Source: an uncultured Gemmatimonadales bacterium
GTDB taxonomy: Bacteria; Gemmatimonadota; Gemmatimonadetes; Gemmatimonadales; GWC2-71-9
DNA: 64,000 nucleotides
Reading direction: 5' to 3'
Assembly: GCA_963842945.1 (NCBI GenBank)
Contig: CAWJIM010000023.1
Coordinates: 160,001-224,000, forward strand
Within the stretch, counting starts at the first letter, position 1. Each line of letters opens with the position of its first letter. Below the pieces are notes generated by a model. It made no database searches. It worked only from the letters and a program-made list of their open reading frames with translations, and was not told where the DNA came from. Made by a program: the position numbers and the translations under genes. Positions 17,014-48,185 of this stretch are shown in pieces.

Positions 17014-17664
17014 GTGGGCGAGCGCGATTACCTGCCGCGCCGCGGCCTGAACGTTCTGGTAGCGCTGATCGCACTGATCCTGCTCTTCCCTCTGCTCCTG
17101 ATGATTGCCCTGCTGGTCTGGCTCACCTCGCCGGGCCCGATTCTCTACACCCAGGTCCGGGTGGGTCTCGACCGCCGACTGCCGGTGGACGCCAACCAGA
17201 ACCAGCGGCGTGAGCGGGACATCGGCGGCAAGCCCTTCACGATTTACAAGTTCCGCACCATGCGGGTGGACGCCGAGCATCAGAGCGGCGCGGTCTGGGC
17301 CCAGCAGCGCGATCCGCGGGTCACCTCGATCGGCCGGCTCCTGCGCCAGTACCGCCTGGACGAGCTGCCCCAGCTGATCAACGTGCTCAAGGGCGAGATG
17401 AACATCGTGGGTCCCCGCCCGGAGCGGCCCACCATCTTCGCCGAGCTGCGGGAGCACATCGCCGAGTACCCGCTGCGGCAGCGGGCCCGGCCGGGAATCA
17501 CCGGGCTGGCTCAGATCAATCACCACTACGACCGCTCGCTGGACGATGTGCGCACCAAGGTGCGCTACGACCTCGAGTACCTGCAGCGCCAGTCGGCGGC
17601 CGAAGACTTCCGCATCATGCTGAAGACCCTCCCCGTGATACTCCGCCGTCGCGGCGGCTGGTAA
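17014..17664 (+). CDS. Priming sugar (phosphoglycosyl) transferase, Bac_transf family; N-terminus may extend upstream
   Basis: [56 protein letters not shown]. Confidence 0.95.
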   Translation: MGERDYLPRRGLNVLVALIALILLFPLLLMIALLVWLTSPGPILYTQVRVGLDRRLPVDANQNQRRERDIGGKPFTIYKFRTMRVDAEHQSGAVWAQQRDPRVTSIGRLLRQYRLDELPQLINVLKGEMNIVGPRPERPTIFAELREHIAEYPLRQRARPGITGLAQINHHYDRSLDDVRTKVRYDLEYLQRQSAAEDFRIMLKTLPVILRRRGGW

Positions 17665-17766
17665 GTCCGGCCTCGCAACCAATCCCTACAACTGTTAGAG
17701 TTCCCCGGCCATTGAGCTCGGCGCACCCTTTATGCCCGGGCCGTCCGACGTCTACCCGAGGCTGTG

Positions 17767-19302
17767 ATGGAGCTGGCGGAATCTCGCACTGTGGAGCGAA
17801 GCACCAGCCGGAGCGCGACCCTGCTGCTCGGCGCGCTGGTGCTGTTCGGATTCGTGCTGCGCTTCTGGCGCCTGGGGAACTGGAGCTTCGAGAGCGATGA
17901 GGTCTTCATGCTCCGGGATTCGCTCCATCCCGCGATCCGAAACCCGAGGCCGCTGCTCTACTTCCTGAACCATTACGTGATTGCACCGTTCATCCCCCTC
18001 GACGAGTTCGGGCTCAGGCTCCTGCCTGCACTGTTCGGGGCGTTGGCCATTCCGGCGTTCTACGCAGTGAGCCGGCGTCTGGTGGGGACTCGATCCGCGC
18101 TGTTCGCCACCTTCCTGCTGACCGTCAGTCCCCTGCTGGTGATTTTCTCCCAGTTTGCCCGCTACTGGTCGCTCGTCTTCCTGCTTTGCGCGGTGTATCC
18201 CTACGCGCTCTACCTGGGCGTAAGAGAGCGGGACCGGCGGATGCTGATCCTGGGCCTGGTGACGCTGGTGCTGGCTTGCCTGGCCCATCCCGCATCGGCG
18301 CTGTTGCTTGGCGGGCCGGGCGTCTGGCTCGCGTTCACCTATCTGCGTCCCACCTACATCCGGCGGGCCTGGGATCAGAAGGTCGTGCGCTGGGGGATCA
18401 TTGCCGGGCTGGTCGTGGCCATGATCATCGCGATGCGCTTCGTTCCTATCCTGCTGCGCTGGGTGTCACTGCACGATACCAAGGGACCGTTCGGGCAGTA
18501 TCTGTTGGGTCCCAAGCTGGCTCCCGGGCTCAAGCAGCTCAAATACCTGCTGGCGTACGCCGAGGGTCTGACTCTCACGGTCACCGTGACCGGAGCGGTG
18601 GGCGTGTATATCCTGGCTAAGAGAGGCGACCGAGCGCTGGCCGCCTACCTCGCCAGCGTGGCGCTCTTTCCCATAATCTTTCTGACACTGGTGTCGCTCC
18701 GAACGCCGGTATCCACCTATTATCTGCTCCCCACCACGCCGGTGTTCTTCATCGGGGCGGGCGTGTTTCTGAGCCGGATATTGGAGATGGACTGGGGACT
18801 GCGGGCCCGGTGGCTGATGCCGGCCACCGTGCTGCTGCTGATCCTCCACGCGGGCACGCCGACACTGATCTCCCAGTACCGCAACGGCCGGCGCTATGAC
18901 TTCCGGGCCGCGGCGCGCTGGCTGGAGAAGCGACTCAAGCCCAACGACGTGGTCTTCTCCGACCAGCCGGAGGCGATGGGCTACTATTTGCCCAAGAAGG
19001 GTGTGCAGCAGCTCAGGTTCAACACCGAGCCGCTTAAGGATTCGCTGCAGGCCATGCGCCGCGATGGCCGGGAGGGGACACTCTGGATCGTTGCTCCGGC
19101 GCCGGCCCACGCTTTTCGCACCAATCTGAGGCAGGGCGGCCTGGCCACGTGGATGTACGGCAATTGCCAGCTGCGGAATTCGCTGGGAGCCGGGCGGCTC
19201 GATTTCCGGCAACAGTACCTGCAGATCTACCGGTGCCCACCCGAGGTCCCCAGTATGGCAGACCCACCTTCGGTCTCGAGGGTCAAGCCCTCAGCGCGAT
19301 AG
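17767..19302 (+). CDS. Multi-pass membrane glycosyltransferase (GT-C fold, PMT/GT39-like)
   Basis: LRFWRLGNWSFESDE loop, LRLLPALFG, SQFARYWSL, many TM helices. Confidence 0.8.
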   Translation: MELAESRTVERSTSRSATLLLGALVLFGFVLRFWRLGNWSFESDEVFMLRDSLHPAIRNPRPLLYFLNHYVIAPFIPLDEFGLRLLPALFGALAIPAFYAVSRRLVGTRSALFATFLLTVSPLLVIFSQFARYWSLVFLLCAVYPYALYLGVRERDRRMLILGLVTLVLACLAHPASALLLGGPGVWLAFTYLRPTYIRRAWDQKVVRWGIIAGLVVAMIIAMRFVPILLRWVSLHDTKGPFGQYLLGPKLAPGLKQLKYLLAYAEGLTLTVTVTGAVGVYILAKRGDRALAAYLASVALFPIIFLTLVSLRTPVSTYYLLPTTPVFFIGAGVFLSRILEMDWGLRARWLMPATVLLLILHAGTPTLISQYRNGRRYDFRAAARWLEKRLKPNDVVFSDQPEAMGYYLPKKGVQQLRFNTEPLKDSLQAMRRDGREGTLWIVAPAPAHAFRTNLRQGGLATWMYGNCQLRNSLGAGRLDFRQQYLQIYRCPPEVPSMADPPSVSRVKPSAR

Positions 19303-20493
19303 TGTAGGGGCGAGCTTCAGTCCCTTCCGGGCCGACACCTGACGGTACAGATCCTCCCATCGCTCGACCACTCGGCCCAATCCGTAGTGCACCCGGACGT
19401 GCTCTCGCCCGCGCTCGCCCATGGCTCGGCGCTCCTCCGGCGCCTGCTGCATCAGCCGCAACATGGCCTGTCCCAGAGCCTCGTGGTCTCGGGGGGGGAC
19501 CAGATATCCGCTCTCGCCGTCGCGCACCACCTCGTGGTTTCCTCCCACCCGGGTGGCCACGATTGGGAGACCGGCGGCGGCCGCCTCGAGCAGCGCGATC
19601 GGCATCCCCTCCCAGGCGGAGGACATGATGTAGCCGTCGGCCGAGGCCATGACCTCCGGCACGTCGGAGCGGATGCCGAGGAAACGGACCCGATCGCCCA
19701 GGCCCAACGACTGGGAGAGCGACTCAGTCTCCTCCTGCAAGGAGCCGTGCCCAACCAGGAGCAGCACCGCGCTCGACTCGCGCTGACGCACCTGGGCAAA
19801 GGCATGAAGCATGTTGGGATAGTCCTTGGCGATCTCGAAGCGCCCGACCGCGAGCCAGACAAACTCGTGATCCTTGACGCCGATCGAGGATCGCAGCGCC
19901 TCACGCGTTCCCGGCGCCACCTGCCGGAATCGCTCGGTGTCGACGCCGTTGGGGACGCAGGTGAGCAGCTCCCGGGGGACGATGCGCTCGTTGACAAACC
20001 GGTCGGCCGCCGCCTCACTGATGATGGTCATGTGGTCCACCAGCCCATTACTGATCCGATAGGCCGCCATCCAGAGTGGGCCGCCCTCGTAGATATTGTG
20101 AATGGTGGAGACCATGACCGGAATGGGGGCAAAGAGCCGGGCCACCCGCGCCATGAGATTGGCGTGGACCATGTGGCTGTGCAGCACATCCGGCTTCCAG
20201 GCCCGCACCAGCCGGATGAGGCGAATCAGGCCTCGTGGGTCGGGAACACCGCGGCGCATGTCCAGGCTCTCGGTGCGGATCCCCTGGCCTCTTGCCTCGA
20301 GGCCCATGGGTCCGAGCTCGGTGAGCGACACGATGCATACGTCGTGTCCCTGAGCGTGCATCAGCTGTGCGGCGGAGAGCAGTTGCTTGTCCGCTCCGCC
20401 CATGCCCATGCTGGTGGAGAGAAACATCACGCGCATGGCTGGCGGCTTAGCAGTCCCATTGTGTTCGTCGCCTGACCCGGGCATACTCAACAT
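19291..20493 (-). CDS. Glycosyltransferase family 4
   Basis: GGADKQL, VPNGVD, KDYPNML, SSAWEGMPIALLEA. Confidence 0.93.
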   Translation of the reverse strand: MLSMPGSGDEHNGTAKPPAMRVMFLSTSMGMGGADKQLLSAAQLMHAQGHDVCIVSLTELGPMGLEARGQGIRTESLDMRRGVPDPRGLIRLIRLVRAWKPDVLHSHMVHANLMARVARLFAPIPVMVSTIHNIYEGGPLWMAAYRISNGLVDHMTIISEAAADRFVNERIVPRELLTCVPNGVDTERFRQVAPGTREALRSSIGVKDHEFVWLAVGRFEIAKDYPNMLHAFAQVRQRESSAVLLLVGHGSLQEETESLSQSLGLGDRVRFLGIRSDVPEVMASADGYIMSSAWEGMPIALLEAAAAGLPIVATRVGGNHEVVRDGESGYLVPPRDHEALGQAMLRLMQQAPEERRAMGERGREHVRVHYGLGRVVERWEDLYRQVSARKGLKLAPTLSR

Positions 20494-20532: not shown

Positions 20533-21303
20533 ATGCCAGCAACGCTCCGACGTTTTATAGACCTGAACCGTCGGGTTTCCCGCTGGGAACGCTCTCTGGT
20601 TTCCCGGCTGGTTCCCGGCTGCGCCGCCGACGGCACCGTGGATTTTCGCGACCGGGTGCTTCCCAGCCTCATCCGGCCCGGCATGCGCCTGCTCGACGTG
20701 GGCGGCGGGAAGGAGCCGGCGATCTCACCCGCCATGAAGCAGCGATACGGGTTGCGGATTACCGGCCTCGACGTCTCCGCCAACGAGCTGGAGCAGGCGC
20801 CGGCCGGCTCCTTCGACCAGACCATCGTGGGGGACGTGGCCACCGTCAGCATTCCCGGCAGCTATGATCTGATCTTTTCCCGCGCCGTGCTGGAGCACGT
20901 GGCTAACCCTCGCGCGGCCGTTGCCAATCTTGCCCGCGTGCTCGCGCCGGGCGGCACCATGGCGCACTTCATGCCCTGCGGCAACGCGCCCTTTGCGGTG
21001 CTGAATCGCTGGCTGGGGAACAAGGCCGCTCGGCGCCTGCTCTTCAGCATTTTCCCGGAGAAGGAAAAGGGAAGCGGATTCCTGGCCTATTACCGGGAAT
21101 GCACCCCCAGCCGGCTGCTCCGGATCTGCCAGGAAAACGGCCTGGAGCTGGACCGGATCTATCCCTACTACAACTCGGACTACACCTCGTTCTTTGCCCC
21201 GGCGTATACCCTCGAAACCATTCGCCAGGCGCTGATGTGCACCCTGCGTCTGAGCGACTTTGCCGAGTCGTTTGCCGTGGTGGTTCGCAAGCCCTCAGGT
21301 TAG
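20533..21303 (+). CDS. Class I SAM-dependent methyltransferase
   Basis: LLDVGGG, GLDVS, YDLIFSRAVLEHV, LAPGG. Confidence 0.9.
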   Translation: MPATLRRFIDLNRRVSRWERSLVSRLVPGCAADGTVDFRDRVLPSLIRPGMRLLDVGGGKEPAISPAMKQRYGLRITGLDVSANELEQAPAGSFDQTIVGDVATVSIPGSYDLIFSRAVLEHVANPRAAVANLARVLAPGGTMAHFMPCGNAPFAVLNRWLGNKAARRLLFSIFPEKEKGSGFLAYYRECTPSRLLRICQENGLELDRIYPYYNSDYTSFFAPAYTLETIRQALMCTLRLSDFAESFAVVVRKPSG

Positions 21304-22119
21304 GTCTCGCTCCTCCGACCCGCCCAGGGTGCGGCGGAGCACTCGCTTCAGCGGCGTAGGACAATAGGCGTAGCCATATCGCCCCAGGGCGAACAGGTAC
21401 ATCCAGGGCGGCAGCTTGAGCTCGCGGACAACCTTTGCCTGCACCTTGGCCAGCGCTCGCTGGCGGTCCACATACTTGAACGACCGGTGGAAGAAGCTGG
21501 TGGAGTGCACGTAGTGCTCTCCCAGAAGCTCGGGCACATTGGCAAAGCGCCACCCCAGCTTGGCCGCCTTGAGCCAGAGAAGCTGGTCCTCCAGGTCGGC
21601 TACCTCGGGGTAGCCGCCTGCCTCGGTCCACACCCGCTTCCGAAACATCGCAATGGTATTGGCCATGGGGATTGCTCGGGCCATGGCCGGAATGATCTCC
21701 TCGTGCTGGCTGGGCGGCATGCGGACGTAGCGCTCGTTCCGGTTCTGATCGATCACGAGATAGTGTCCCCCGACGACGCCGACCCTGGGGTTGGCATCGA
21801 GCACGGCGACCTGGAGCCGGAGCCGGTCAGGGTAGCTGCGGTCATCGAAGTCCTGCCGAGCGACGTACTCACTCCGTGCCTGGTTGACTCCGAAGTTGGC
21901 TGCTCCGGTGATGCCGAGCCGTCCGGGTGAGAAGACTCGCACCCGGGAATCGCGGCGCTCGAGATCCCGGAGGATCTCCTCGGTCTTGTCCTGAGAGCCA
22001 TCGTTCACCAGCACCCACTCGAAGTCGGTCAAAGTCTGGTTCAGGATTCCCGGGATGGCGCGATCAACATACGGCTCGCCGTTGTACACGGTGGTTACTA
22101 CGCTCACCCGCGGAGTCAT
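21295..22119 (-). CDS. Glycosyltransferase family 2
   Basis: VSVVTTVYNGE, VNDGSQD, ARQDFDD, LED. Confidence 0.92.
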   Translation of the reverse strand: MTPRVSVVTTVYNGEPYVDRAIPGILNQTLTDFEWVLVNDGSQDKTEEILRDLERRDSRVRVFSPGRLGITGAANFGVNQARSEYVARQDFDDRSYPDRLRLQVAVLDANPRVGVVGGHYLVIDQNRNERYVRMPPSQHEEIIPAMARAIPMANTIAMFRKRVWTEAGGYPEVADLEDQLLWLKAAKLGWRFANVPELLGEHYVHSTSFFHRSFKYVDRQRALAKVQAKVVRELKLPPWMYLFALGRYGYAYCPTPLKRVLRRTLGGSEERDLT

Positions 22120-23369
22120 CGGTTGGTCCCTCGCCGCGCACTGGGCGCCCCGATGGGACCCGGCCGGCCCCGCACCGGCCCGCGGAACTGAGGAGCACCG
22201 GCGTACTCCGGAGTTGGGGCCGCCGGCCGCCAGGCGAGCGAAGGCGCCCGGGCTAGTCCAACCAGGGCGGCGAGCACGAACCAGACGCTCTTTCGGTCGT
22301 CCCAGCTCAGCGGCAGCATGGCTACCGCAATGGTGGCGAGTAGCACCAGCGCAAAGCGGCGCTCCATCCCTCGCAGCCGCATCAGGGAGAGGAATACCGC
22401 GATAAACATGGTCAGGTATAACAAGAGCCCGATGAGGCCCTCTTCGACCAGCACGGAGAGATAGGAGTTGTGGGCCACCTGGGTGGCCGACCCCAGCTGC
22501 GGCATCACCGCGATCTTGAACGAGCCGCTGCCGTATCCGATCAGCGGCCGCTGGGCGAACGCGTTGATACCGGCCTTCCAGATTCGGAGGCGCCCGCCCA
22601 GGCTCATATCCTCCACTGCGGTCGTGGTGCTCGAGAGCCGGCTGACGATAGTCTGCGGGACGTAGGCCACCGCGACACCGCCCGAGATCGCCAGCAGAGC
22701 GATCGCGAGCGCCAGCTTTCCCGGCGAGAGTCGAGTCATGGTGAGTGGCACGATGAGGAGGGCCACAAGGCTTGCGATCATGCCGCCCCGCGACCCGGTG
22801 AGCGCGATGGCGAGGAGACCGATCGGGAGGTATCCCCGGCAGGCCCAGCGTATGATGGGCCGGTGATAGGTCATGCCGAGATACCACGCCATAGGGATGG
22901 CGGCGGCGAGCGTCATCGCCAGGTCATTGGGGTCTCCGCCGCCGCCGGCAAAGCGCCCGGCGGCGCCGCCCGCTCTGCGGTAGAGCAGGATGGTGTCCAG
23001 GGCCGAGACATAGGAGCCCAACACATACGCGCTCAGCAGCCCGATCAGCCGCGGGCGCGTGGGGGCAAGCTCCCAGATCATCCAGACCATCACCAGCAAC
23101 TGCACGAAGGTCCAGAATTTCCTGGGCATGACCGCCGGATTGTAGACAATCAGCAGCACGCCTGCGGCCCAGACTACGAATAGCAGCGCGGCGACATGGA
23201 AGACGTGCCACCGCCGAAACCGGCCGGATGTGACATTGAGCACCAGCGTCAGAGCAACCGCCACCGCACCGATCACCCGGCTGAATACGCCGACGCCGGG
23301 GATCACGATGAAGTTCTCCCAGGGCAGGGAGAAGACGAAGAACCAGACGGCGGCATAGCCAATCGACAT
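22116..23369 (-). CDS. O-antigen ligase / Wzy-type polymerase family membrane protein
   Basis: DPNDLA, LTGSRGG, RLRIWKAG, GYGSGSF, AHNSYLSVLVEEGLIG. Confidence 0.88.
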   Translation of the reverse strand: MSIGYAAVWFFVFSLPWENFIVIPGVGVFSRVIGAVAVALTLVLNVTSGRFRRWHVFHVAALLFVVWAAGVLLIVYNPAVMPRKFWTFVQLLVMVWMIWELAPTRPRLIGLLSAYVLGSYVSALDTILLYRRAGGAAGRFAGGGGDPNDLAMTLAAAIPMAWYLGMTYHRPIIRWACRGYLPIGLLAIALTGSRGGMIASLVALLIVPLTMTRLSPGKLALAIALLAISGGVAVAYVPQTIVSRLSSTTTAVEDMSLGGRLRIWKAGINAFAQRPLIGYGSGSFKIAVMPQLGSATQVAHNSYLSVLVEEGLIGLLLYLTMFIAVFLSLMRLRGMERRFALVLLATIAVAMLPLSWDDRKSVWFVLAALVGLARAPSLAWRPAAPTPEYAGAPQFRGPVRGRPGPIGAPSARRGTNR

Positions 23370-24469
23370 TAGGCTGTCTGCTCGATCACGCTGAGGTAAT
23401 GATCCACTGCTGCATCCATGGTGTATGGCTTGAGTGCATCCGGATCCACGGTATCTCCCGGCCGATCTAGCGCAGCTTCCATCGCGCCCGCCAGGGCGGC
23501 GGCGTCTCCCACCGGCACCAGCGCGCCCAAACGGCCATCCTGGAGAATTTCCCGCGGCCCACTAGGGCAATCGGTCGAGACCACCCGCGTGCCAGCAGCC
23601 AGCGCTTCGATCAGCACGGTAGGCAGTCCTTCCCACGCCGACGACAGCACGAACAGGGCTGAACGGGCCATGTAGGCCATCGCGTTCTGGAAGCCCGGCA
23701 GTGCCACATCCTGGGTCAGCTGCAGTTCTCCAATGAGGCGCTCCAAATCCGCCCGGTCTTCTCCCTCCCCCAGGATAATCAGGCGGGCCTCCCGGCGGCT
23801 CCGCAGCCGGGCAAAGGCGCGGATCAGCGTAGGAAAGTCCTTCTGCCGGGTGAGACGCCCCACTCCGAGAATCACCGGCGGCTGGCCCGGCTCTAGCCAG
23901 GGGTGGCCCGGCTCCTCCCGGGCGAGCGCCATGACGCTGCGGGTGATCACGGGATTGTACACCACCTCGACTTGACTGCGGGGAAAGCCGGAGGTGCGAG
24001 CCAGATCGTCAGCCGCTCCGCGGGACACTGCGACCACACTGCTGGCCCAGGGATAAAAACGCCGCAGCAGGATGGGCCACAGATTTCGCGAAACCACGTT
24101 CTCATGCTGGTTGGCCTGCGACATCGTGTTGTGCTCGGTGACCACCACGGGAGTGACCCGGCCGGCCAACCGCGCAGCCCAGAGCGCCACCAGATTCGCG
24201 TGGCTCATCGACGACACCAGCACTCGCGGGCGTTCGCGTCTCAGGTAGTCCGCCAGCGGGCGGAGACTCCCCAGCAGGCGGCGAGCGCCGAGATCCACCA
24301 TTCGCACTGCCGGTGGAAGGCTCTGCAGGAATACGCCGTCGGCCTCGGCGAGCACCAGATCGACGGGATGGCCCCGCTCAGCGATGCCTTCGACCAGATT
24401 CACCACCACCCGCTGGGCCCCTCCACCGCGGACCGCAGGCAAGAAGAAGGCAATGCGACCGTTCTTCAT
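23369..24469 (-). CDS. Glycosyltransferase family 4
   Basis: GGGAQRVVVNL, GRLTRQKDF, SSAWEGLPTVLIEALAAG. Confidence 0.93.
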   Translation of the reverse strand: MKNGRIAFFLPAVRGGGAQRVVVNLVEGIAERGHPVDLVLAEADGVFLQSLPPAVRMVDLGARRLLGSLRPLADYLRRERPRVLVSSMSHANLVALWAARLAGRVTPVVVTEHNTMSQANQHENVVSRNLWPILLRRFYPWASSVVAVSRGAADDLARTSGFPRSQVEVVYNPVITRSVMALAREEPGHPWLEPGQPPVILGVGRLTRQKDFPTLIRAFARLRSRREARLIILGEGEDRADLERLIGELQLTQDVALPGFQNAMAYMARSALFVLSSAWEGLPTVLIEALAAGTRVVSTDCPSGPREILQDGRLGALVPVGDAAALAGAMEAALDRPGDTVDPDALKPYTMDAAVDHYLSVIEQTA

Positions 24470-24473: not shown

Positions 24474-25361
24474 TCATGCCCAATCGAACTCTTCCCCCAA
24501 CCACCGGTATAGCTCCCGATTATGGGGCTCGAAGTAGCTGGCCAGCCGGGCTCGCAACTCGGGAGGCAAACCGGAATCGTAGTTCCCAACCAGAAATGGC
24601 CGATATTGTTCCAGGCGGTGCGAGTCGAGTCCAAGAAACCGGTACACGGCCGCGGTTGCGCCGACAGGGTCGCGAAACAGTCGCTCACTCTGCAGGACCA
24701 GAAGCTGCTCCCGGGGAAAATGCTGGGTCCAGCGGCGCAGCTGCTCGAGGTAGAGGCCACGCCGCAGGTACGAGTAGCGGTGGTGATTGAAGCTGTAATA
24801 CTCGGGGTCGCTCTGAAGCCGCTCCTCTTCGCCGGCCAGACGCTCAGGCTCCTGATCGAGCGCGTCCGCAAAGGACAGCGGCTCCCGGCCGTAGCGCACC
24901 TCGTGCTGGTAGTGCGAAAGCGCGCGGTCCACCGGGTTCCGGAGCACCGCGATGAGCCTGGTGTCGGGGAGCAGCTGCGCCGCGCGCGCGGGCACCTGCG
25001 GATGGATCAGGTAATAGGGTGAAGCATCGAGCGTCAGCTTGCCCTCGCCGAGCCGCTGCCGATACGGAAAGTGCCGGCGATACCAGTTCACGCCGCGGTC
25101 GTAGTTGAAATCGAAGTAATGGATCTCTTTCCCTAGCGGCGCCAGCACTCGGGGGTGCTGCGCCAGGTAATGGAAAAGCGATGTAGTCCCGCTCTTCTGG
25201 GCGCCGATGATGAGTAGGCTGGGGAACCCCCGCAGGGACGCCGTCAGCTGCCGGTACTCGGCCCGAAGCCAGCGCAGCGGCTGCTTGGCCTGCCCCATGA
25301 GCCCACGGGGGCGAGCCCGGCCAGGCACCGGCCGGCGGGAAGCAACAGGCGCCATCGTCAC
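24474..25361 (-). CDS. PAPS-dependent sulfotransferase (heparan-sulfate sulfotransferase-like)
   Basis: 5'-PSB loop IIGAQKSGTTSL, KEIHYFD, DASPYY, 3'-PB LRNPVDRALSHY. Confidence 0.92.
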   Translation of the reverse strand: MTMAPVASRRPVPGRARPRGLMGQAKQPLRWLRAEYRQLTASLRGFPSLLIIGAQKSGTTSLFHYLAQHPRVLAPLGKEIHYFDFNYDRGVNWYRRHFPYRQRLGEGKLTLDASPYYLIHPQVPARAAQLLPDTRLIAVLRNPVDRALSHYQHEVRYGREPLSFADALDQEPERLAGEEERLQSDPEYYSFNHHRYSYLRRGLYLEQLRRWTQHFPREQLLVLQSERLFRDPVGATAAVYRFLGLDSHRLEQYRPFLVGNYDSGLPPELRARLASYFEPHNRELYRWLGEEFDWA

Positions 25362-26959
25362 TTGGTGTTCACCCTCCCGGCTGGCGCGTAGCTCCGGCCA
25401 GAGCGGTCGACCTGGGCGAGGTGCCGGCCGCGACGGATCAACTCACTCGCCCGCTTCCAGGCCCACTTGCCGTGGGGCCCCAGGAAGACCTCGGGGCGAA
25501 GCCTGCTGGCCAGCACGGTAACCGCGCCAGCAGTGATGCCAGCGACCAACAACACGGGGATCTTGCCCAAGCTGGCGGCACGGGCGGCCTGGGCCGCAGC
25601 TAATGTGGCACCCCCGAGGACCGTTGCGAGCAGCGCCGCCGGCGCGTGAGCATTGACGAACCGGGTCCATGACAGGCCGGTGACCGAACGGCCCAGCCAC
25701 GCCATAGTCAACCAGTTAATGCCCATGGCGATTGATACGGCGACCGCGACTCCTCCCACTCCCCAGCGCTGTCCAATGAGCGCGCCCAGGACCACCATGG
25801 CGGCGTAGACGCCCTGGATTACCGCCCTAGAGTACACGGCACCGGCAGCCTTGGTGCAGGCATCGCTGATCTTGCTGCTCATCCGGAAGAGCAGCCTAAA
25901 GGTGAACAATCGAAACGGCAGTACGACGGCGGCCCACGCGGGCCCCAGCAGGACCGGGATGAACTCCGGGGCGACTACCCAGAGGAAAGCACTGACCGGC
26001 AGCGAGACCAGGCCACGATCGCCAGCGCGCGCTCGTACGCACCGGCCAGCCGCTCCGGTTCGTCCTGAACCTGCGCCATGACTGGAAACAGCACCCGATT
26101 CACAATTTTTCCGAATACCGTCGCGGGCATGACCATGAGGCTGTACGCGCGGCCGTAGATCCCGAGCGCGGCCGGCCCGAGCCACCGGCCGACAACCAGG
26201 TTGTCGCCCTGCTGCGAGAGCACGGTTCCGACCTGAGCCAGCGAGTGCCCGAGCCCGAAGCTGAGCAGGTCACGGCTGGCCTGCCGGTTGAAGCTCGGGC
26301 CACACCGGATGACGGGTGGCCAGGTACATGCTGACGGTGCGCAAGGTGACCTGCGCGAGATTCGCGGCGACGAGGGCCCACACGCCATAGCCGAGCCAGG
26401 CGAGGAGCGACGCCCACGCAGGCGTAGCCGATGACATAGCTGGCGAGATCGAGCGCGACGTAGAGCCGGAACCGGAGCTGCCGCGTGAGCAGCGACTCGC
26501 CGACCGTATTCAGGCCGTCGATCGGGAACAGGAGGGCGATGCCGCGGAGCACCGGCTCCAACGCGGGAATCCGGTAGAACGCGCTCAGTGCCGGCGCGCC
26601 AGCCACACGGCGACTCCCAGCGTGGACCCAGGACGCAGGAGATGGTGACGGCCGCGCGGATGTGGGTGCGCTCGAGATCCCGCCGCTGCACGATGGCGGG
26701 CCCGACGCCAACCTGGGAGACGATCTGGGAAAGCGCGATGATGACCGTCGCCGCGCCCATGAGCCCAATTCCGCCGGGGTGAGCAGCCGGCCCAGGGCCA
26801 TGATGACCAGCAACTGCACCACGCCTGCACGCCGGTGCCGCTGAAGGTCCAGAACATGCCGCCTAACGCCTGCTCGGTCAGTCCGCGAGGCGCGCCACGA
26901 GAGCGCCCGCGGCCCTGGTCCTCGGCTCCGGGCTGCTCCGGCTGGTCCTGCGGTCTCAC
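25358..26959 (-). CDS. Wzx-type polysaccharide flippase (frameshifted)
   Basis: LGRLLTPAE.G, VGPAIVQR, DNLVVGRWLGPAALGIYGRAY, VLFPVMA. Confidence 0.9.
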
Positions 26960-27031
26960 GCGTGTGCTCCGGAGAGGCGCGAGAGAGGCATGGTGCGGCC
27001 AGGTCGTTCGCGCGGGCAGGGCCGGCGTGCC

Positions 27032-32071: not shown

Positions 32072-32075
32072 GGTC

Positions 32076-32903: not shown

Positions 32904-32931
32904 TACTGCCCCCTGTTCCGTGGTAGCGACA

Positions 32932-39260: not shown

Positions 39261-41025
39261 GGCCGGAAGATGATCCCCTTGTCCTGCAGGTGCGACTTCA
39301 GGCTGTCCACCGCCTCCGGCACCGCTCCGCCCGGCAGGTGAAGGTCGCAGGCCAGGTCGGTGGTGATGATGTCGCCGGCCCAGACGGTCTCGATCCAGTC
39401 GGGCTGAACCGCGGTCTTGATGACTTCCAGGTCTTCCTGGGTCAGCTCCGCGGCCGCCACGATGAGGATGATGCCGGCATCCAGCATCAGGTTGGCCACC
39501 TCACCCAGACGCCGCATGTGCTCCAGCCGGTTTTCCTGCTTCCGGCCGATGTCGGCGTCCACCCCGTAGAGCACGTTCCCGATGCCCAGGAAGTAGACCA
39601 CCTTCCCGTCCTCGAACAGCTTTCCTTCCAGCGCCTTGGCCACGCTCTTTCGCTCGGCCTCGTCTTCTCCGGTCACCAGAATGAGCGCCGCCTTCTGATT
39701 GTACTTCTCGGCCCTCCGCTCCGGCTGGATGAAGCTCGGCTCCCACTTGTAATTGCGGAGGAGTACCCGATCGCGCACCGCGGACTGCCGATCGGGCAGC
39801 GCCTCGCGCACGATGCCCCCACCGCGGATCTCGAAATCGTCTACGATCACGAACCGGCTGGTCGCGGCGACATCCTCGGCCAGGTCACAGGCGATGGCCC
39901 GATCCAGCTTGAGCACGCACTCGGCGACATCGTGCCGCTGAATGACGTTCTTCTGCGTGGCATCGAGGGTCGAGGCGTCCATTACGCGCAGGATCTCCTC
40001 CACCCGGCAGACCACGCGGGCCGTGCCCAGCTTGAGCAGATATTCCTTGCGCTTGATCATCGGCTCTTTGCCCAGCCAGAAGAGGCTCACCCGGAGCCGG
40101 GTAGACATCTGAGGGCGAGGCTGAGATTCCAGCGTCGCCATCTCTCCCCGGGTGATGTAGATCTGCTCCTGGAGGGTGAACCCGACGGCCATACCGGCGC
40201 TGGCCTGGGTCTGCGGAGGGCGGTTGAACGCCTCGATGCTCTTGACCCGGCTCTTCTTTCCCGAGGGATAGAAGATGACCGAATCGCCTACGTTGAGCGT
40301 ACCGGAGTCGATGGTGCCTGCGACGATGCGCCGGTCATCGCCCTGCTTGGTGAACTTGTAGACGTCCTGCACCGGCATCCGGAACGGGCGCTCAACCGGA
40401 GCCGGCGCGCTGCGGAATGCATCCAGCGCTTCCAGCACCGTGGGTCCCTGATACCAGGGCAGTGCTCGGACCGGTCCGCGATGTTGTCGCCGCCCCGAGC
40501 CGAGACCGGAATGAAGCAGGCGGGTCGGATGCCGACCTGATCGAGGAACGCGCCATATTCCTGGACGATTCCCTGGTACACGGCGCGGTCCCAGCCAACC
40601 AGATCCATCTTGTTGACGACCACAGCGAGCTGGCGAATGCCGAGCAGCGACATCATGTAGCCATGGCGGCGGGAATTCTCCTGTACCCCTTCGGCCGCGT
40701 CGATCACCAGCAGCGCAGCCTCGGCCCGGGCGGCACCCGTGATCATGTTCTTGAGGAACTCGATGTGGCCCGGGGCATCGAGAATCAGATAGTGCCGCTG
40801 CTGGCTCTTGAAGAACACCCGGGCGGCATCGATGGTGATGCCCTGGGCCTGCTCGTCCTTCAGGGCATCGAGCAGGAAGGCATACTCGAAAGGCTTCGAG
40901 TTCAGCTCGCACTGGGTGCGAACCTGCTCCAGCTTCCCTTCGGGAAGCGAGTGGGTGTCGGCCAGCAGCCGGCCTATGACGGTGCTCTTGCCGTGATCGA
41001 CGTGGCCGACGATCACGATGTTCAT
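39254..41025 (-). CDS. cysN: Sulfate adenylyltransferase subunit 1 (GTPase) with degenerate C-terminal APS-kinase-like domain (frameshifted)
   Basis: [41 protein letters not shown]. Confidence 0.93.
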
Positions 41026-41233: not shown

Positions 41234-43705
41234 TTACTGCTCCTCTACCGCGTAATCGTAGGGGTAGTAGTAATCTCCGTACTGCGAGACCTCGCCACCC
41301 GGATCGTTGAGCACCGTACCCACGACACGGGCGCCCACGTTGACCAGCTGCTGGTGCGCCCGCTTGGCCGCGACCCGGTCGGTCTGCCCCGCCCGCACCA
41401 CGAGCAGCACCCCATCGGCGAGCGAGCGAGGATTCCGGCATCGGCCGTGGCCAGCACCGGCGGCGTATCCAGGATGACTAGGTCGAAGCTCTTGGCCAGC
41501 TCCTGGAGCAGCACCCGCATCCGAACGCCGCTCAGGAGATTGGACGCGTTGGTCGGCAAGGCCCCGCAGGTCAGCAGCGAGAGGCCTCTCACCGTTGTGG
41601 GCCGGACGACGTCGGTAACAGCACGACCGGACTCGGTTCGCCCGATCCCGGGATCGAAGCTGAGCGAATCGCCGGCATCGTTCGCATTGTATGCAGGGGT
41701 CAGAGAGCTCCATGAGGCCGGGGGCGCGGGGCACCTGGAAGAGCCCATGCAAATCGGGCCGGCGCACGTCGCAGTCGATCAGGAGCACCCGCAGGCCATC
41801 GTAGGCAAACGTGACCGACAGATTGGCCGCGGTGAGGGTCTTCCCTTCGCCCGGGGCCGCGCTGGTGATGACCAGCGTCTTCATGTTGTCGCCCTGCTCG
41901 CACCAGACCAGGCTGGTGCGCAGCATCCTGAACGCCTCGAGCGCCGACCGAGAAAGGCTGAGACACCGTGCCCAGCGCGTGGAGCGTTGCTCCTTGGATC
42001 CAGCTCGGCCTTCTTGCCGGGACCGAGCAGACCACCCAACCGGCGGAGCCGGCTGGCCGAGCCCGTGAGCCGAGGAATGACGGCCAGACCGGGGACATTC
42101 AGCGCGAGCTCGAGATCCTCCGGTCGGCGAATGGAGGTGTTCATTGTCTCCAGAAGGAACGCGCCGCCCAGGCCCGAGCAGGAAGCCGAGCAGCAGACCC
42201 AAGTGCGAGCTTGAGCGAGGCGGTGGCCAGATCGGCGCGTAGGGAGTGTCAGCCAGATTGACGATATCCACGTCGCCCGCTTCTACCTCCTCCGCCATCC
42301 GGGCCTTCTGATAGTCCTGCCGGACCTGATCGCTGGTGGAGGTCAGGGTCTGGACCCTCGCGTTCAACCGAGCTTCCTCTTCGGCCATGGCCGGCAAGCA
42401 GTCTGGAGCGAGCGCCGCGCTGGGATCGCGGAGGTCTCCGAGTGCGGCGATCCGCGCGTCCAGCGTAGAGACGTGACTTGCCACCGCCTGCCGCAGCTGG
42501 CCCTTGGTGGAAGTGATGAGGCTCTTGAGCTGGATCAGATCGGGGTTGGTCGGGGCGGCCCGCCAGGGCCCGGTGGTCATGGAGTCGAGCCGGTACTGAT
42601 AGGTGCTCGAGCTGCCGGTAGTAGTTGCTGACCGTCGGGTTATCGGCCAGGGCCGGAGACGAGGCCAAGGCCCGGAGGGCCTCGGACTCCCCGGCAGTCC
42701 CCGCCTTTCTTGAGCTGCGCCATCAGGGCGGCGAAGGTGGTCCGATCGGCCTCGAGCTCGCTTCGGCGGGCGTCCAGCGCCATCATGGAGGTCTGCTGGG
42801 CGTCCAGCGCGTTCTGAGAGCTGGCCAGCTGCTGCCGGCTACGGAACGAGGCCAGCTCGGCCTGCGCCCGGGCCAGCATGCTGTCGGTCTGCCGCAGCTG
42901 CGCCTCGAGGAATTGACGGCGCCGGATCGACTTCTCCTTGGCATCCTGAATGCTGAGCTGCTTGAACGTGTTGACCGCCGTATTCACCACCCGCTGCGCG
43001 CGTGCGGGGGTTCCCCGACGTATAGCGAGATGTCGATCACGTCGGTACCGGCTCTCGGAGCCACAACCAGGCTCTTCAACAGCTCGTCGATGGCCACCTC
43101 GCGGGGCGCGACGTAGAGGGTGGCGCTGGGCACGTCGGGGACTTCGGTGACCGCAAACCGTAGCGATTCCGAGGTCGAGAACCTGCCCGTAGCGGGCCCG
43201 CGCCTCACGATTAGGCAGTCGGCCTTGACCCCGTTCTGGTAGAAGGTCACCTGAATGGTGTCGCCGCGAGCCGCGGGGTTGACCCACACCTGCTCCAGCC
43301 GGGCCGCGCCGAATTCCGGAGTCAGCGACTTCAGCTGCAGACCCAGCGAGTCCACGACCGCCTCCGATGACGCTGTAGCTTCGGACCAGCTGCGCCAGGG
43401 ACAGGAACGGGTCCGCGGTGCGGGGAAGCTGCGGCTCGGGAGTCTCGATCTCGCCGGTGAGCGACTGCCGCTCGCCTGCCAGCCGAATCGTGGCGACCGC
43501 CCGGTAGGTGGCGGGCGACTTAGGCCAGGTAGATACCCGCACCCAGTCCGAGCAGCGTCAGCACCAGAACCAGGCGATACCGCCGGCGGAGGACGCCGAA
43601 GATCTGGCCCAGCGAAATCGAGTCGCCGGCCGGCCGCTCGAAGGGAACCTCGCCCGGAGGCATGCCGGAAGGGAGCTGGCGAACTGGAGGATAGTACTCT
43701 GGCAT
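41234..43705 (-). CDS. Wzc-type polysaccharide co-polymerase / BY-kinase (multiple frameshifts)
   Basis: N-terminal TM, coiled coil, EAFRMLRTSL, Walker A APGEGKT, IDCDVRRP, DTPP, Tyr cluster YGDYYYPYDY. Confidence 0.92.
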
Positions 43706-43708: not shown

Positions 43709-44378
43709 TTATGGGTTCCTGTTGGCCCGATCGATCAGGAGGTAAATGGACGCAACCGACCCGACGACGCTCAGGCCCGGCAGGAAGATGTCCCGAAAGA
43801 AAGACCTTCGGCGATCGACCACGATCTGATCCCCGGAGTGAACTCGCAGAGAAAGATTGGCCTTGGATGGCTCGGAGAGATTGACGTAGAACTCACGCTG
43901 CGCTTGACCGGTACCCTCACGCCGCAAGATCCGAATGTGATCGCGGTTGGCAAACTGGGTGGGTCCACCCGCCTGCGCCACGGCCTCACCGATCGTGGTT
44001 TCCGGCCTCACGGCAAACACCTGGGGACGCCCCACCTCACCAGAGATGGCAATTCGGATCAGGGGCTCGACCACAAATTGGGGATCCTGCTCGAACCGGC
44101 CAAGGAAGGCACGAACATTCGTCTGGGCGGTAGTAAAGGGAATGCCTCCGACCCGGACCGCCTGGTACAGCGGGTGGGTGATGGTGCCGTCGGCCCTACA
44201 ATGAAATCGCCGCTCATCTCCGGCTTGCGCCACACCACGATCCGGACTGAATCGCCGGGGGCCAGAACGACCTGTTCGGGCGGAAGCGGCGAGCCTGGCG
44301 CCCTGGCGCTGCGGCCCTGCTGGAGAAGACCAGGAACGCCAGCAACGGGGGCAGGGATCGGAGGAGCAGATTTCGCAT
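43709..44378 (-). CDS. Polysaccharide export protein (Wza/SLBB-like; frameshifted)
   Basis: LAPGDSVRIVVWRKPEMSGDF, GEVGRP, AVAQAGG, GDQIVV, amphipathic C-terminal helix. Confidence 0.85.
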
Positions 44379-44714
44379 AGACCTCAGTAGGAGTCGAAGA
44401 CTCACAGACCCTCAAACTGGACCGGCTCAGTTCAGATACAGCCGCCGCCGGGGGCGCACGATCTATGCCTTTATGCGGCATGGGTATGGCCGAGCGGCGG
44501 CCCGGAGCGTAAGGCAATGTATCAGCATTGCTTCTGACGTGCAGTGAGGCTTTGGGACGGGGAGAAATCAGCCGCGGGAACGGCGGGTGCAGTCCAGATG
44601 GTAGGGGGGTCAACAACGCTCGGCACAGCCCTGTAGCGCCTCTCCAACACCTACTACAAATCAAGGCCAAGGGCTGACCCATCCGGACCGAGGTGACACC
44701 GACCACAGCGGTAT

Positions 44715-44763: not shown

Positions 44764-46635
44764 CTACCGATTCCTACAGGATTTGGCCGGTAAAGAGGCC
44801 AGTGCGGCAGCTACATCTCTGAACGCCTGCTGATTCTCGAGATTGGCCATGAAGGCATCGTCGTACTTCCACATCATCAAGCCGCAGCCGGCCGAGCCCA
44901 GAAGGATACCCCACTCTCTGACTTGCTGAGCGGTCATCCGGCAGTTGGGATTGAAGCTGCCCCTGCCGCCGGTGGTATCCAGCGGACAGTTCCACTGGCC
45001 ATCCAGCGCGGCCTGGAAGCCGCCGTTCAGAATATTCATGCTGAAGATGATGCCCATGCCGTCCCGGCGCCCCAGGCGCGAGACCAGCGTCAATGAACTG
45101 ATTCACGTCGCCCTTGCGCCAGGAATACTGGTCCACCAGGAACTCACAGACCTGGTAGGACTTGGTCGGCTCAAAGGTTTGATGGTTGTGAACGACGCCG
45201 ACCAACATGGTCGGGAACATGTTCTTGACGTAGGCACACAGTCCGTCGACACGCGCTTTGGTCATGGTGCCCGCCGGGCCCCACGTATTTCCATCCCCCC
45301 CTCCAGTCACGTTCGGCTCATCCATGACGGAGTTGCCGATGATGGTCCCGTCAGCCACGGCTGCAGCCACTGCGGCCTTGATGGCCGGAGTATTGTAGGT
45401 CTCCATCTTGGCCTGCCACTTGGCCAGATCGAAAACGTCGTTAGTCAGGTAGTTCCAGTGCGATCCGCCGGTCATGGCCAGCACGAGCCGCTTGTGGTTC
45501 TGTCTCGCCACATCCAGCCGGGCAATGATGTTGGTGGCGTTGATCGAGCCGATACCGGCGGTGAAAAATCCGGTGTTCGGCTCCAGCGAGGTATCTCCGG
45601 CCCAGAGGTCGTACGGTCCAAACGGGGATCCCCATCGGCGTGCCGCTGCCCAGCGGGGTGGTGACCGTGATGGCCGACGTATCGGCGAGGGCACCAGCAG
45701 TGGCGATGACCCGATAGTTGCCGGCGGTCTGACCGGCAGTAAAGAGGCCGGCCGCCGTGACGGTACCACCGGTGGCCTTGAAGACCACGGAAACAGGCAC
45801 ACTGTCGCCGGTCGTGGTGGTGCCGTAAGTGGCAAACTGTTTCTTGGTGCCTGGTGCCAGCGTCACACTGATGGGCTTCAAGATGACCTTCGCCAGAACC
45901 GGCTCAGCCGGTGGTGCGGGCGCGGGCGGCGGCGGTGGCGGCGGCGGAGGAGGAGCCGGAGGCGCGCTAATCGTCACCGTTACGGTGTCGGCCAGGGTTC
46001 CAGCGGTGTTGGTTGCCGTTACCCGGTAGGTGCCGGCGGTGTCTCCGGCGACATAGGTGCCGCCGGCATCGATGAATCCTCCGGTGGCTCCCCAGTTCAC
46101 TCCAATGGGGGCGACGACGCCTCCCCTCTGATCGCCCGACCGCGGTGAAGGTCTGGCTGACTCCGGGGGTGAGGCTCACGCTGGTGGGGGAGATCTTGAC
46201 GGCAACCAGGTTGGTATTTCGGCGAACTACAGTGACGAGCGAGGTGTCGACCTGCAGTTTCCCGCGTATGCGGTTCTGGCCGACGACAGTATAGGTGCCG
46301 ATGGCAGCGGCGGAGAATCGTCCGTCGGGCAGAATAGTTCCGCCCGACGTGCTCCACATGACCGCTGCACCGACGCTGTCGCCGGAGCTGGTGCGTCCGT
46401 GCGCTCGGAATTGAATCAGCTGGTTTGTTTCTAGCGTGACGATACGGGGTGAAACCTGTACCGCCACTGGAGTAAGATCTTCTGTTTTTGTTGCCGTACC
46501 GGACGTTGGTTGTTCAGTGGGAGCTTCTGGAGCGGTTGCGTCGCCACCGCAGGCACCCAGCACCAGGAGAAGGGGCAGCATAGCCAAAGTTCGTGAGACT
46601 GCCAGTCTCCGCGCAAGCTTAAAGGTGTACGTCAT
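44764..46635 (-). CDS. Lipoprotein with Ig-like repeats, poly-Pro linker and putative glycoside hydrolase-like C-terminal domain (frameshifted)
   Basis: Lipobox LGA-C; repeats V.ISP.SV.L.PG...F.A.G; PPAPPPPPPPPPPAPAPP; SVMDEPN. Confidence 0.65.
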
Positions 46636-47012
46636 TTGGGCTACCCTTTCATCGCTCTCCTTACAGTGAAGTCCCAACCGTTCCCATCAATCCCCCACCA
46701 CCCTTGGGCTAAGCGTACTTTAACCACCCCTCCGCCACTTTCAATGGCCAAATATTCGACAGCGCGCAATTGCCAGGAATTTTACCTTTAGCATGAACTG
46801 AAAGCGTTTGTGAGCTTTACATGTCAGACTAGGACGTCAATTGTAACAAAAAATTTTGTCAACTACTTAGACGCTAATGATTCAGCTTGCACTGAACTCA
46901 ACCGGTCCGGGCAGTTCACACCCGCCCCCGCCACGAGGTATACTTCCGCTCCTCCAGCCTTCCAGCGGCTGGACCTCCACCGAACTCTGGCCACGCCGGG
47001 GAGCATCGCCGC

Positions 47013-48185
47013 ATGAACATCGCCCTCATGGTGACCCGGGCAGACCCGGTTGGGGGGGCCCAAATCCATGTGCGGGATCTGGCAGCGGCGGCCCGAGCGC
47101 ATGGGCACAGCCCCACCGTGATCACCAGCGGCAGCGGCCCTTTCCTTCAGGACCTGCGAGCGCAGCAGATTCCAGTAGTGGTTCTCCAGTGCTTGGGAGC
47201 CCCGATCTCCCCACTGCGAGACTTCAGGGCGCTGCAGGAGATCCAGGCCACACTCCAGAGCCTCCGCCCCGATTTGCTCGCGACCCACTCCTCTAAGGCT
47301 GGAATCCTGGGGCGAATCGTGGCTCGTCGACTCCGGATGCCGGTCGTCTTCACCGCCCACGGCTGGTCGTTTACCCCTGGAATCGCACCCCCCCGGGCAG
47401 CGCTCTATCGTCTCATCGAGCGGCTGGCGGCCCCTTTGTCCAGCAAGATCATCACGGTTTCCGAGTTCGACCGCCGCCTGGCACTCGATGCCGGAATCAC
47501 GACCGCGGACCGGCTGGCCACCGTGCACAACGGGATACCGGACGTGGCGGCCCAGCGCAGAGCCAGCCCTGGCCGGGATCCGGCTCGACTGGTCATGGTC
47601 GCCCGGTTCGAGCCGCAGAAGGATCACGCTACCCTGCTCCATGCCCTCGGTGGACTGGTGGGGCGACCCTGGGAGCTCGATCTCATCGGGGACGGACCGC
47701 TTCGAGGGCAAATGGAGCAGCTGGCGAGAACACTCGGACTGGGTACTCGAGTCAGGTTTCTGGGACAGCGACCGGATGTGGATGCCCGCTTGGCCGAGGC
47801 CCAAATAAGTGTGCTCACCACCAACTGGGAGGGGTTCCCCTTGACCGTGCTGGAGGCGATGCGGGCCGGCCTCCCGGTTGTTGCCTCTGCTGTTGGGGGT
47901 GTTGCCGAAGCACTTCAGGACGGCGATTCAGGATATCTCGTGCCGCGGGGGGACGTGACGGTGCTGCGCGACCGACTCGGCAGACTGCTGAGCTCTCCCG
48001 GGCTTCGGGAGGAGATGGGAAGTAAGGGTCGTATCCGCTGGGAACAGCACTTTACGATCGAGCAGATGGTGGAGAAGACTTTTGCCATCTACCAGGATGT
48101 TGTGCGAGCAGAGCCGCACGGTCGATCGATCCTCGCCGGGGATTACCGCCGGCGTGACGGCGTGAGCCCGGCTACGCAGTCATGA
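47013..48185 (+). CDS. Glycosyltransferase family 4
   Basis: GGAQIHV, HSSKAG, FTAHGW, ARFEPQKDH, WEGFPLTVLEAM. Confidence 0.93.
   Translation: MNIALMVTRADPVGGAQIHVRDLAAAARAHGHSPTVITSGSGPFLQDLRAQQIPVVVLQCLGAPISPLRDFRALQEIQATLQSLRPDLLATHSSKAGILGRIVARRLRMPVVFTAHGWSFTPGIAPPRAALYRLIERLAAPLSSKIITVSEFDRRLALDAGITTADRLATVHNGIPDVAAQRRASPGRDPARLVMVARFEPQKDHATLLHALGGLVGRPWELDLIGDGPLRGQMEQLARTLGLGTRVRFLGQRPDVDARLAEAQISVLTTNWEGFPLTVLEAMRAGLPVVASAVGGVAEALQDGDSGYLVPRGDVTVLRDRLGRLLSSPGLREEMGSKGRIRWEQHFTIEQMVEKTFAIYQDVVRAEPHGRSILAGDYRRRDGVSPATQS

Follow-up and report, generated by a model that had tools for sequence, protein, structure and literature searches.

Why should a locus for the assembly of a surface polysaccharide carry genes for the uptake, activation and recycling of sulfate? 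The question is raised by a stretch of 64,000 nucleotides, hereafter the window (positions 160,001 to 224,000 of contig CAWJIM010000023.1, GenBank assembly GCA_963842945.1; 65% G+C), from an uncultured Gemmatimonadales bacterium, in which polysaccharide genes of the Wzx/Wzy type are interleaved with four sulfotransferase genes (types A to D), a sulfate importer and the block cysN-cysQ-cysC-cysD, predicted to make the sulfate donor 3'-phosphoadenosine 5'-phosphosulfate (PAPS). To judge from its genes, the locus likely makes a sulfated capsule or exopolysaccharide through the Wzx/Wzy route. The PAPS block is tied to sulfation, because it is gained and lost together with sulfotransferases and is kept in lineages in which neither cysH nor sulfite reductase was found. 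The genome (G000; 4.3 Mb in 24 contigs) has its closest CysD relatives in the Gemmatimonadales, and within one genus of this order, represented by 103 genomes, the locus occupies a fixed site; wherever both flanks were mapped, it is bounded by sbcCD/GNAT and PTPS/folE.

The open reading frames of the window were profiled with Pfam and NCBIfam, and every gene class that the preliminary description had listed for ~16.9-48.2 kb was found again, as was the absence of cysH, sulfite reductase and cysK from the locus. Its start at 17014 has to be moved, since the priming transferase begins near 16920 (start judged from relatives), and the inventory did not include the gene of a lipoprotein that combines Ig domains with a barrel like that of glycoside hydrolases. 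No nucleotide-sugar genes lie in the locus. The genome holds a single cysD, cysN, cysQ and sbp, and four of its five sulfotransferase genes lie within ~13 kb of the sole cysD; on account of both facts the co-location goes beyond chance.

The linkage assumed in the preliminary description is conserved across related genomes. The order cysN-cysQ-cysC-cysD recurs in 28 of the 29 closest CysD loci, the remaining one being frameshifted, and wzc precedes it in 22 of them, the remainder being mostly short contigs. The block is present in all 15 near-complete loci that bear sulfotransferases (G004, G020, G025, G028, G031, G032, G033, G098, G100, G103, G108, G113, G114, G115, G120) and missing from all six that lack them (G105, G107, G035, G024, G008, G016), which retain wza, wzc, wzx, wzy, the GT-C gene and glycosyltransferases; partial loci (G017, G073, G087, G096, G097, G119, G124, G126 and short contigs of the G000 clade) stand outside these counts. 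At the level of genomes, cysQ and sulfotransferases agree in 42 of the 46 that are at least 90% complete (36 with both, six with neither, four discordant), as against 37 for cysQ and sulfite reductase, seven of these genomes having cysQ with no reductase match; kin are not independent in these tallies, so that Fisher tests exaggerate their significance and carry no weight here, and G065 enters only those over the 103 genomes.

The activation enzymes themselves fall into two kinds. In all locus-type copies in which the motif was located, the Walker A of the C-terminal kinase-like domain of CysN is degenerate, unlike that of the separate CysC, which is intact. Five genomes with cysH and at most one sulfotransferase match (G003, G008, G016, G105, G125) have CysD proteins of a separate clade (99 in the SH-like approximate likelihood-ratio test, SH-aLRT, of a quick IQ-TREE search from which frameshifted or over-long CysD rows were left out). 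This clade stands beside cysH-sir in four of the five, G008 being split by a contig end; the P-loop of the fused kinase is intact in four of the five, and no cysQ match is listed for any of them.

According to the preliminary description the route ends at PAPS, and this holds in the sub-clade of G000, a CysD group formed with six close relatives (SH-aLRT 88, quick tree), in none of which cysH or sulfite reductase was found. The only PF01507 match of G000 is the window cysD. Profile searches of this genome, which is 87% complete, found no second cysDN, Sat-type ATP sulfurylase, cysH or sulfite reductase (NIR_SIR), and tblastn with the CysH, Sir and CbiX-CysG proteins of relatives gave no match; a separate cysDNC-cysH-cysIJ set, sought genome-wide, is thus not found in G000. 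Two cysK/M-like genes elsewhere score under the family cut-off. In relatives, cysH-sir-cysG occupies a slot adjoining pepP and thiC. In G000 the slot lies on a continuous contig with its flanks in order and holds a glycoside-hydrolase-like gene, an ATP-grasp gene and cysteate synthase instead; a similar replacement is seen in G098 (95% complete, 3 contigs) and G011, and on continuous contigs cysH-sir is not at the thiC-side slot in G126 and G124, so that the slot lacks it in all five genomes inspected. Each of the seven genomes of the CysD group has a single cysD-type PF01507 match, and none is among the genomes with a sulfite reductase match. With no APS reductase (that is, reductase of adenosine 5'-phosphosulfate) or sulfite reductase found, sulfation would be the only use of activated sulfate in this sub-clade. 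The cysteate synthase (TIGR03844, 439 bits, cut-off 325) lies at L122:10605-12014 (G000 C5, ~70.6-72.0 kb) and recurs in L142 (G098) and L144 (G011). Cysteate synthase requires sulfite, yet it is present here with no APS reductase found.

Across the 103 genomes, PF01507 is matched in 93, sulfite reductase in 69, sulfotransferases in 87, the Wzy-like orthologue in 90, cysQ in 79 and sbp in 75, and among 139 genomes sampled from the rest of the order 16 have cysQ. In most of the genus cysH-sir-cysG forms an operon of its own that is not accompanied by cysDN: 29 of the first 36 relatives carry one full-length cysD-type match (G036 with an extra partial one) and 28 a cysH-type match, cysD stands alongside in four of the 28 fetched cysH loci, and 12 of the 14 with a full 20 kb lack it. 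All 28 CysH proteins of these loci carry CC-X~80-CXXC, an APS-reductase motif in the part of PMC1175818 available, and for this reason CysC is probably not needed for assimilation. Because most relatives combine one cysD with a distant APS-reductase/sulfite-reductase operon, the single CysDN likely feeds both sulfation and the distant CysH/Sir in most members, CysC and CysQ being the likely sulfation-specific steps. The locus-type cysDN is therefore the sole copy rather than a dedicated duplicate. The preliminary description had regarded the whole set as dedicated to the polysaccharide; this stands for the PAPS genes as a block tied to sulfation, and is too strong across the genus for cysDN, the only copy found, whose APS probably serves assimilation as well in most members.

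The same facts could be read as ordinary sulfur nutrition housed in a polysaccharide locus, polymer sulfation being minor or absent. Such a reading draws on the only cysDN found, on the lack of cysDN beside cysH-sir in most relatives, and on an importer with its own regulatory box that is often located elsewhere. It is nevertheless highly improbable, given that the block is kept where the slot lacks cysH-sir (the G000 clade, G124, G126), is missing where sulfotransferases are missing, and that the five genomes named above have CysD of the separate clade, which lies beside cysH-sir in four, with no cysQ match listed for any of the five.

The importer requires separate treatment. The unit rrf2-porin-sbp-cysTWA, which contains the only sbp found in G000, lies within 8 of the 15 sulfotransferase-bearing loci. 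De novo motif search revealed that the porin is preceded by a palindromic box, made up of CCTATTTACTCTATC and then a partial mirror half; a first guessed operator pattern had been dropped (1 match in ~230 upstream regions). The box precedes 25 of 29 porin genes, a circular count as the matrix was trained on those sites, and is found upstream of none of the cysH (0/28), cysN (0/48), wza (0/47), sulfotransferase (0/119) and rrf2 (0/30) genes, some genomes having been fetched twice. Since the box was not found at these genes and only 8 of 15 loci carry the unit, the importer counts as an accessory unit that carries a box of its own, and nothing suggests that it shares a regulon with either sulfate branch; it is probably controlled by the Rrf2 protein at this candidate operator. 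Co-regulation with cysH/sir, raised in the preliminary description as a possible objection, was looked for through the porin box alone and gave no sign in the 28 cysH upstream regions. The literature search found no publication on the box. One further site above 20 bits occurs in the whole of G000 (C18:137487, L162:9487; 25.7 bits); it precedes an unannotated gene by ~80 bases, with a DUF6817 gene on the opposite side.

The sulfotransferases were compared with solved structures. Three of the four (A, B and D) resemble heparan-sulfate 3-O-sulfotransferases at the sequence level: the best solved relative of type D is heparan-sulfate 3-O-sulfotransferase 3A1 (E 7.8e-34), an intact homologue of type A matches the bacterial sulfotransferase structure 3rnl and heparan-sulfate 3-O-sulfotransferases (E 2e-18), and types A, B and D have in common a K-E-x-x-F/Y-F segment. 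Types A and D also match N-sulfotransferase domains, and sequence search found no close relative of type C among solved structures. The 5'-PAPS motif is present in nearly all distinct full-length homologues (type A 31/32, B 19/20, C 21/22, D 8/8), at a median of 8-28 residues from the start, and the maximum 19-residue hydropathy stays below 1.4, with no signal peptide or membrane anchor. Because the PAPS loop lies near the N-terminus and no hydrophobic segment is present, all four types are predicted to be cytoplasmic. Eukaryotic heparan-sulfate 3-O-sulfotransferases have an N-terminal membrane anchor, which types A to D lack. A broader picture, which we regard as speculative and rather doubtful, is that the genus makes densely sulfated, heparan-like surface polymers (hexosamine 3-O- or N-sulfated) with soluble cytoplasmic enzymes that act on lipid-linked repeat units, and that its sulfate metabolism is organised around this coat, the sole operon for sulfate activation being housed in the capsule locus, assimilation borrowing APS and several lineages having dropped assimilation and kept sulfation.

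When these elements are put together, the porin and Sbp/CysTWA would take up sulfate, a step that Rrf2 probably controls at the conserved box; CysDN would convert the sulfate to APS and the stand-alone CysC would turn this into PAPS, the kinase-like domain of CysN looking inactive, and CysQ would remove the by-product PAP (3'-phosphoadenosine 5'-phosphate). Cytoplasmic sulfotransferases would then sulfate a lipid-linked repeat unit ahead of flipping. This unit would comprise about five sugars, added by the priming transferase, three glycosyltransferases of family GT4 and one of family GT2; Wzx would flip it, Wzy polymerise it, and Wzc and Wza export the product. Elsewhere in the genus, APS from the single CysDN would in most members also feed the distant CysH/Sir operon.

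The assembly genes fit such a scheme. Wzx has an intact homologue (E 3e-77), all eight intact Wzc homologues have a Walker A and 5-7 Tyr within the last 60 residues, and Wza, an outer membrane polysaccharide export (OPX) protein, has in relatives ~215 residues, a signal peptide, a C-terminal hydrophobic helix and PF02563/SLBB domains. The last step could be drawn differently, with a PF04932 ligase or the GT-C protein placing a short sulfated glycan on surface proteins or lipids: PF04932 is the O-antigen-ligase family, the TIGR03097 O-glycosylation-ligase model is weakly matched, the GT-C gene is in every complete locus mapped, including those without sulfotransferases, and the neighbouring lipoprotein has Pro/Thr-rich linkers. 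This seems unlikely, as the Wzc with its intact Walker A and Tyr cluster and the OPX protein, both marks of polymer export, are core to the locus, and TIGR03097 scores 85 and 56, far under its cut-off of 188; the Wzc/Wza context favours a polymerase. The reading of a sulfated polymer made by Wzx/Wzy is thus preferred.

Several facts nevertheless weigh against it, in whole or in part. The genome is 87% complete and 6% contaminated. The Wzy-like protein has 7-9 predicted transmembrane segments, and its family also covers O-antigen ligases; the GT-C protein, too, belongs to the locus core. Sulfotransferases vary in type and in number, from 1 to 5 per locus, and four of them against about five glycosyltransferases would mean very dense sulfation, so that some may act on other acceptors; a fifth G000 gene lies away from the locus (C23:274829-275462, L163). 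The supply is not exclusive across the genus, 24 of the 36 relatives holding both cysD and cysH, and B. subtilis CysH, which has the same cysteine motif, reduces PAPS too, as stated in the available part of PMC1175818. For 7 of the 15 sulfotransferase-bearing loci the importer lies elsewhere or was not found. Finally, co-transcription of wzc and cysN is left unsupported by a strong hairpin between them, an 11-bp perfect stem (window 41188-41214) just after wzc that is common to close relatives and may end or process the transcript ahead of cysN. As a feature of the genus this hairpin was rejected, since it is limited to the sub-clade and two other loci and does not extend across 33 intergenic regions. 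Operon limits could not be delimited by a scan for sigma-70 promoters and terminators, which showed no excess over shuffled sequences (3 vs 2.9 and 9 vs 10.6). The fifth sulfotransferase gene stands beside a peptidase M3 gene and an extracytoplasmic function (ECF) sigma factor gene, and the 20 kb fetched for it contain no glycan genes.

In the G000 assembly, frame changes interrupt at least ten genes of the locus, including three sulfotransferases, wzx, cysQ, cysN, wzc, wza and the lipoprotein gene, which might suggest that the locus is decaying, with several sulfotransferases, wzx, cysN and wzc as pseudogenes. Such decay is scarcely credible. Unrelated genes elsewhere in the genome are split as well (thiC, pepP and a nitrous-oxide reductase homologue), each split gene of the locus has an intact homologue in at least one relative, the closest being 83-91% identical in DNA across long shared blocks, and single bases at 26296 (three runs), 26408, 27107-27319 and 43363 (one run, depth ~5) are missing from short-read contigs of related strains, several of these differences coinciding, at low depth, with inferred frame changes. 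For these reasons the frameshifts look like assembly errors. Among the sequencing runs no RNA run is listed and the best shares are <=0.12, and nothing is concluded from them on expression or habitat.

Around this core, other genes are exchangeable. The polymer was earlier described as probably methylated; methylation is possible and not a core trait, its support being weakened by the distribution of the two methyltransferases, which are nearly confined to the G000 sub-clade. Among the fetched loci, homologues of the first occur only in G098 and G114, and the second is found in the sub-clade and two other loci; other relatives, including those lacking sulfotransferases, have different methyltransferases. 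The lipoprotein, with Pro/Thr-rich linkers, Ig-like domains and a C-terminal barrel, occurs in loci with and without sulfotransferases. Sequence search found nothing useful for its barrel among solved structures, and Pfam and NCBIfam gave no match. A model of the G098 homologue (25-sequence alignment) is a TIM barrel with a predicted local distance difference test (pLDDT) of 89, and the best Foldseek matches of the barrel are mannanases of glycoside hydrolase family GH5 (E ~3e-7, template-modelling score ~0.5). An Asp-Glu-Pro motif is invariant, as is an Asn at the place where GH-A geometry would put the nucleophile, and because of this Asn hydrolase activity is uncertain. Several stand-alone paralogues of the barrel family lie elsewhere in G000 (C18, C19, C2). 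An exchangeable module of polysaccharide deacetylase, acyl carrier protein (ACP), FabG, AMP-binding, LuxE and LuxC genes in L086-L087, L089, L095, L139, L173 and L185 suggests polymer acylation, with or without sulfotransferases. In the sulfotransferase-less L170, L171-L173, L175 and L178, nucleotidyltransferase-like and kinase-like genes stand near wzx, possibly for another anionic modification replacing sulfate. Two further polysaccharide loci of G000 have no sulfotransferase match, L164-L165 (C23, ~410-427 kb) and L166 (C20, ~142-156 kb), and one of them has its own Wza, Wzc and Wzy-like genes.

The principle, PAPS genes and sulfotransferases within a polysaccharide cluster, is already described in a few other bacteria and is not new; the comparisons that follow draw on the available portions of the papers cited. 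The capsule cluster of Cobetia marina KMM 1449, whose sulfate was shown chemically, contains cysN/C, cysD, cysQ, a sulfate transporter and a sulfotransferase (PMC11766843), and the ACP/FabG/LuxCE module of some relatives is loosely like its wcb operon; however, Cobetia has export of the ATP-binding cassette (ABC; Kps) type and a sulfate permease, whereas the present locus has Wzx/Wzy, an ABC importer, a porin, Rrf2, a separate CysC and four sulfotransferases. In Vibrio sp. KMM 8419, cysNDC and sulfotransferases likewise lie in a polysaccharide cluster, a combination that the authors consider a hallmark of sulfated polysaccharide synthesis, but there the genes are second copies and export is of the ABC type (PMC11641403), while here they are the only copies found. 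Strains with such a gene combination have chemically proven sulfated capsules (PMC11641403, PMC11766843). The xss cluster for synechan in Synechocystis PCC 6803, with a proven sulfated product, has Wzx/Wzy and sulfotransferases of distinct subfamilies; it differs in being plasmid-borne and regulated by XssQ/R/S, and the portion of the paper available lists no genes for PAPS synthesis or sulfate import in it, PAPS being nowhere mentioned in the main text (PMC8205485).

Closer to soil, wps-1 of Actinoplanes missouriensis combines Wzx/Wzy/Wzz with a methyltransferase, a glycoside hydrolase and two sulfotransferases, of which one has a heparan-sulfate sulfotransferase domain, and a sulfate adenylyltransferase/APS kinase gene adjoins the cluster; this organism is Gram-positive, the available portion does not mention OPX, importer or cysQ, and the sulfated product is putative in both cases (PMC13390465). 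Mycobacterium tuberculosis has, as is likely for most of this genus, one CysDN feeding both APS reductase and APS kinase/sulfotransferases, but its active kinase is the C-terminal domain of CysN and its products are sulfolipids (PMC4373884), in contrast to the degenerate P-loop, separate CysC and polysaccharide locus found here. Pontiella sulfatireligans F21, with a measured sulfated exopolymer, has in a cluster putatively for a sulfated glycosaminoglycan a glycosaminoglycan-type sulfotransferase, GT2/GT4 genes, a methyltransferase and a TuaB-like gene; it is a marine anaerobe of another phylum, and PAPS genes are not named for its cluster in the portion available (PMC7356697). No publication on a sulfated-polysaccharide system in Gemmatimonadota was found in the literature covered, which lacks most subscription papers. 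What is new here is comparative: the block travels with sulfotransferases, persists in genomes lacking assimilation, contains the sole CysDN and is accompanied by an importer with its own box.

Few bacteria, most of them marine or cyanobacterial, are proven to make sulfated polysaccharides, and the presence of the cluster in most of a soil genus of 103 genomes (cysQ in 79, sulfotransferases in 87) suggests a producer that is widespread on land. Natural controls are also at hand in the genus, where loci occur with or without the sulfation block and genomes with or without assimilation, so that gene-by-gene predictions can be made. Soluble bacterial homologues of heparan-sulfate sulfotransferases could serve to make sulfated glycans enzymatically, provided that they accept related substrates, and were the heparan-like coat real, the genus would be an overlooked source of ester sulfate in soil and a pool of bacterial heparan-type sulfotransferases.

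Table 1. Features of the locus in window coordinates, with the matches on which each assignment is based (TM, transmembrane segments; SAM, S-adenosylmethionine; PDB, Protein Data Bank).
Feature	Position	Strand	Evidence and remarks
Priming polyprenyl-phosphate glycosyltransferase, short form	16920..17664	+	PF02397 E 2.8e-59; frameshift near 16993
GT-C fold membrane glycosyltransferase, PMT_2-like, ~8 predicted TM	17764..19302	+	PF13231 E 1.8e-5, just under Pfam cut-off
GT4 glycosyltransferase	19291..20436	-	PF00534 E 1e-40
SAM methyltransferase 1	20533..21303	+	PF08241 E 2e-15
GT2 glycosyltransferase	21295..22119	-	PF00535 E 1.9e-27
Wzy-like polymerase	22116..23369	-	PF04932 E 1.6e-22
GT4 glycosyltransferase	23369..24469	-	PF00534 E 3e-33
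Sulfotransferase D, intact	24474..25355	-	PF00685 E 3e-20; PDB E 7.8e-34; PAPS motifs
Wzx flippase, several frames	25358..26960	-	PF13440/PF01943
Sulfotransferase C, Sulfotransfer_3 type, frameshifted	27080..27959	-	PF13469 pieces
Sulfotransferase B, frameshifted near 28550	28265..29184	+	PF00685 pieces
Sulfotransferase A, frameshifted near 29370	29201..30077	-	PF13469 E 1.8e-18
Sulfate ABC importer sbp-cysT-cysW-cysA	30096..33942	-	TIGR00971, TIGR02139, TIGR02140, TIGR00968 above cut-off
Anion-selective porin, O/P family	33959..35401	-	PF07396 E 3.6e-30
Conserved palindromic box upstream of porin, candidate Rrf2 operator	35479..35507	-	De novo motif search
Rrf2-family regulator, four clustered cysteines	35548..35997	-	PF02082 E 4e-37
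SAM methyltransferase 2	36137..36931	+	PF13489 E 5e-6, about at cut-off
cysD	36991..37872	-	Sole PF01507 match in genome
cysC, APS kinase, P-loop intact	37899..38501	-	PF01583 E 3e-52
cysQ, PAP phosphatase	38498..39260	-	TIGR01331 above cut-off; frameshift near 39139
cysN GTPase with C-terminal APS-kinase-like domain	39254..41025	-	Walker A degenerate in kinase-like domain; frameshift near 40462
Wzc co-polymerase/tyrosine kinase, frameshifted	41234..43650	-	Walker A and C-terminal Tyr cluster
Compact Wza/OPX export protein	43709..44400	-	PF02563/PF10531
Predicted lipoprotein, Ig-like domains and TIM barrel, frameshifted	44764..46635	-	GH5-type likeness; invariant Asp-Glu-Pro
GT4 glycosyltransferase, divergent	47013..48185	+	PF00534 E 1e-35

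Related arrangements exist beyond the genus. In other Gemmatimonadales (L032, L035-L039, L043, L050, L074), genes for CysQ-CysC fusions of ~420-460 residues separate cysN from cysD, and sulfatase-family genes and a flippase are frequent neighbours; a scan that did not cover singleton genes recognised no sulfotransferase within 10 kb. L188 of G171, a single-contig genome of another family, contains cysQ-cysD-cysNC together with two sulfotransferases, a P450-like gene and GT4 genes; no sulfite reductase match was obtained for this genome, and no Wzx/Wzy genes were recognised near its cys set. Rfam gave no match in the window. The locus itself is framed by two conserved flanks, with FadD, M23 peptidase, SDR, folE and PTPS genes at 10000-16200, and a response regulator, GNAT and sbcCD at 48200-55200, where one gene with no family match is presumably HerA-like.

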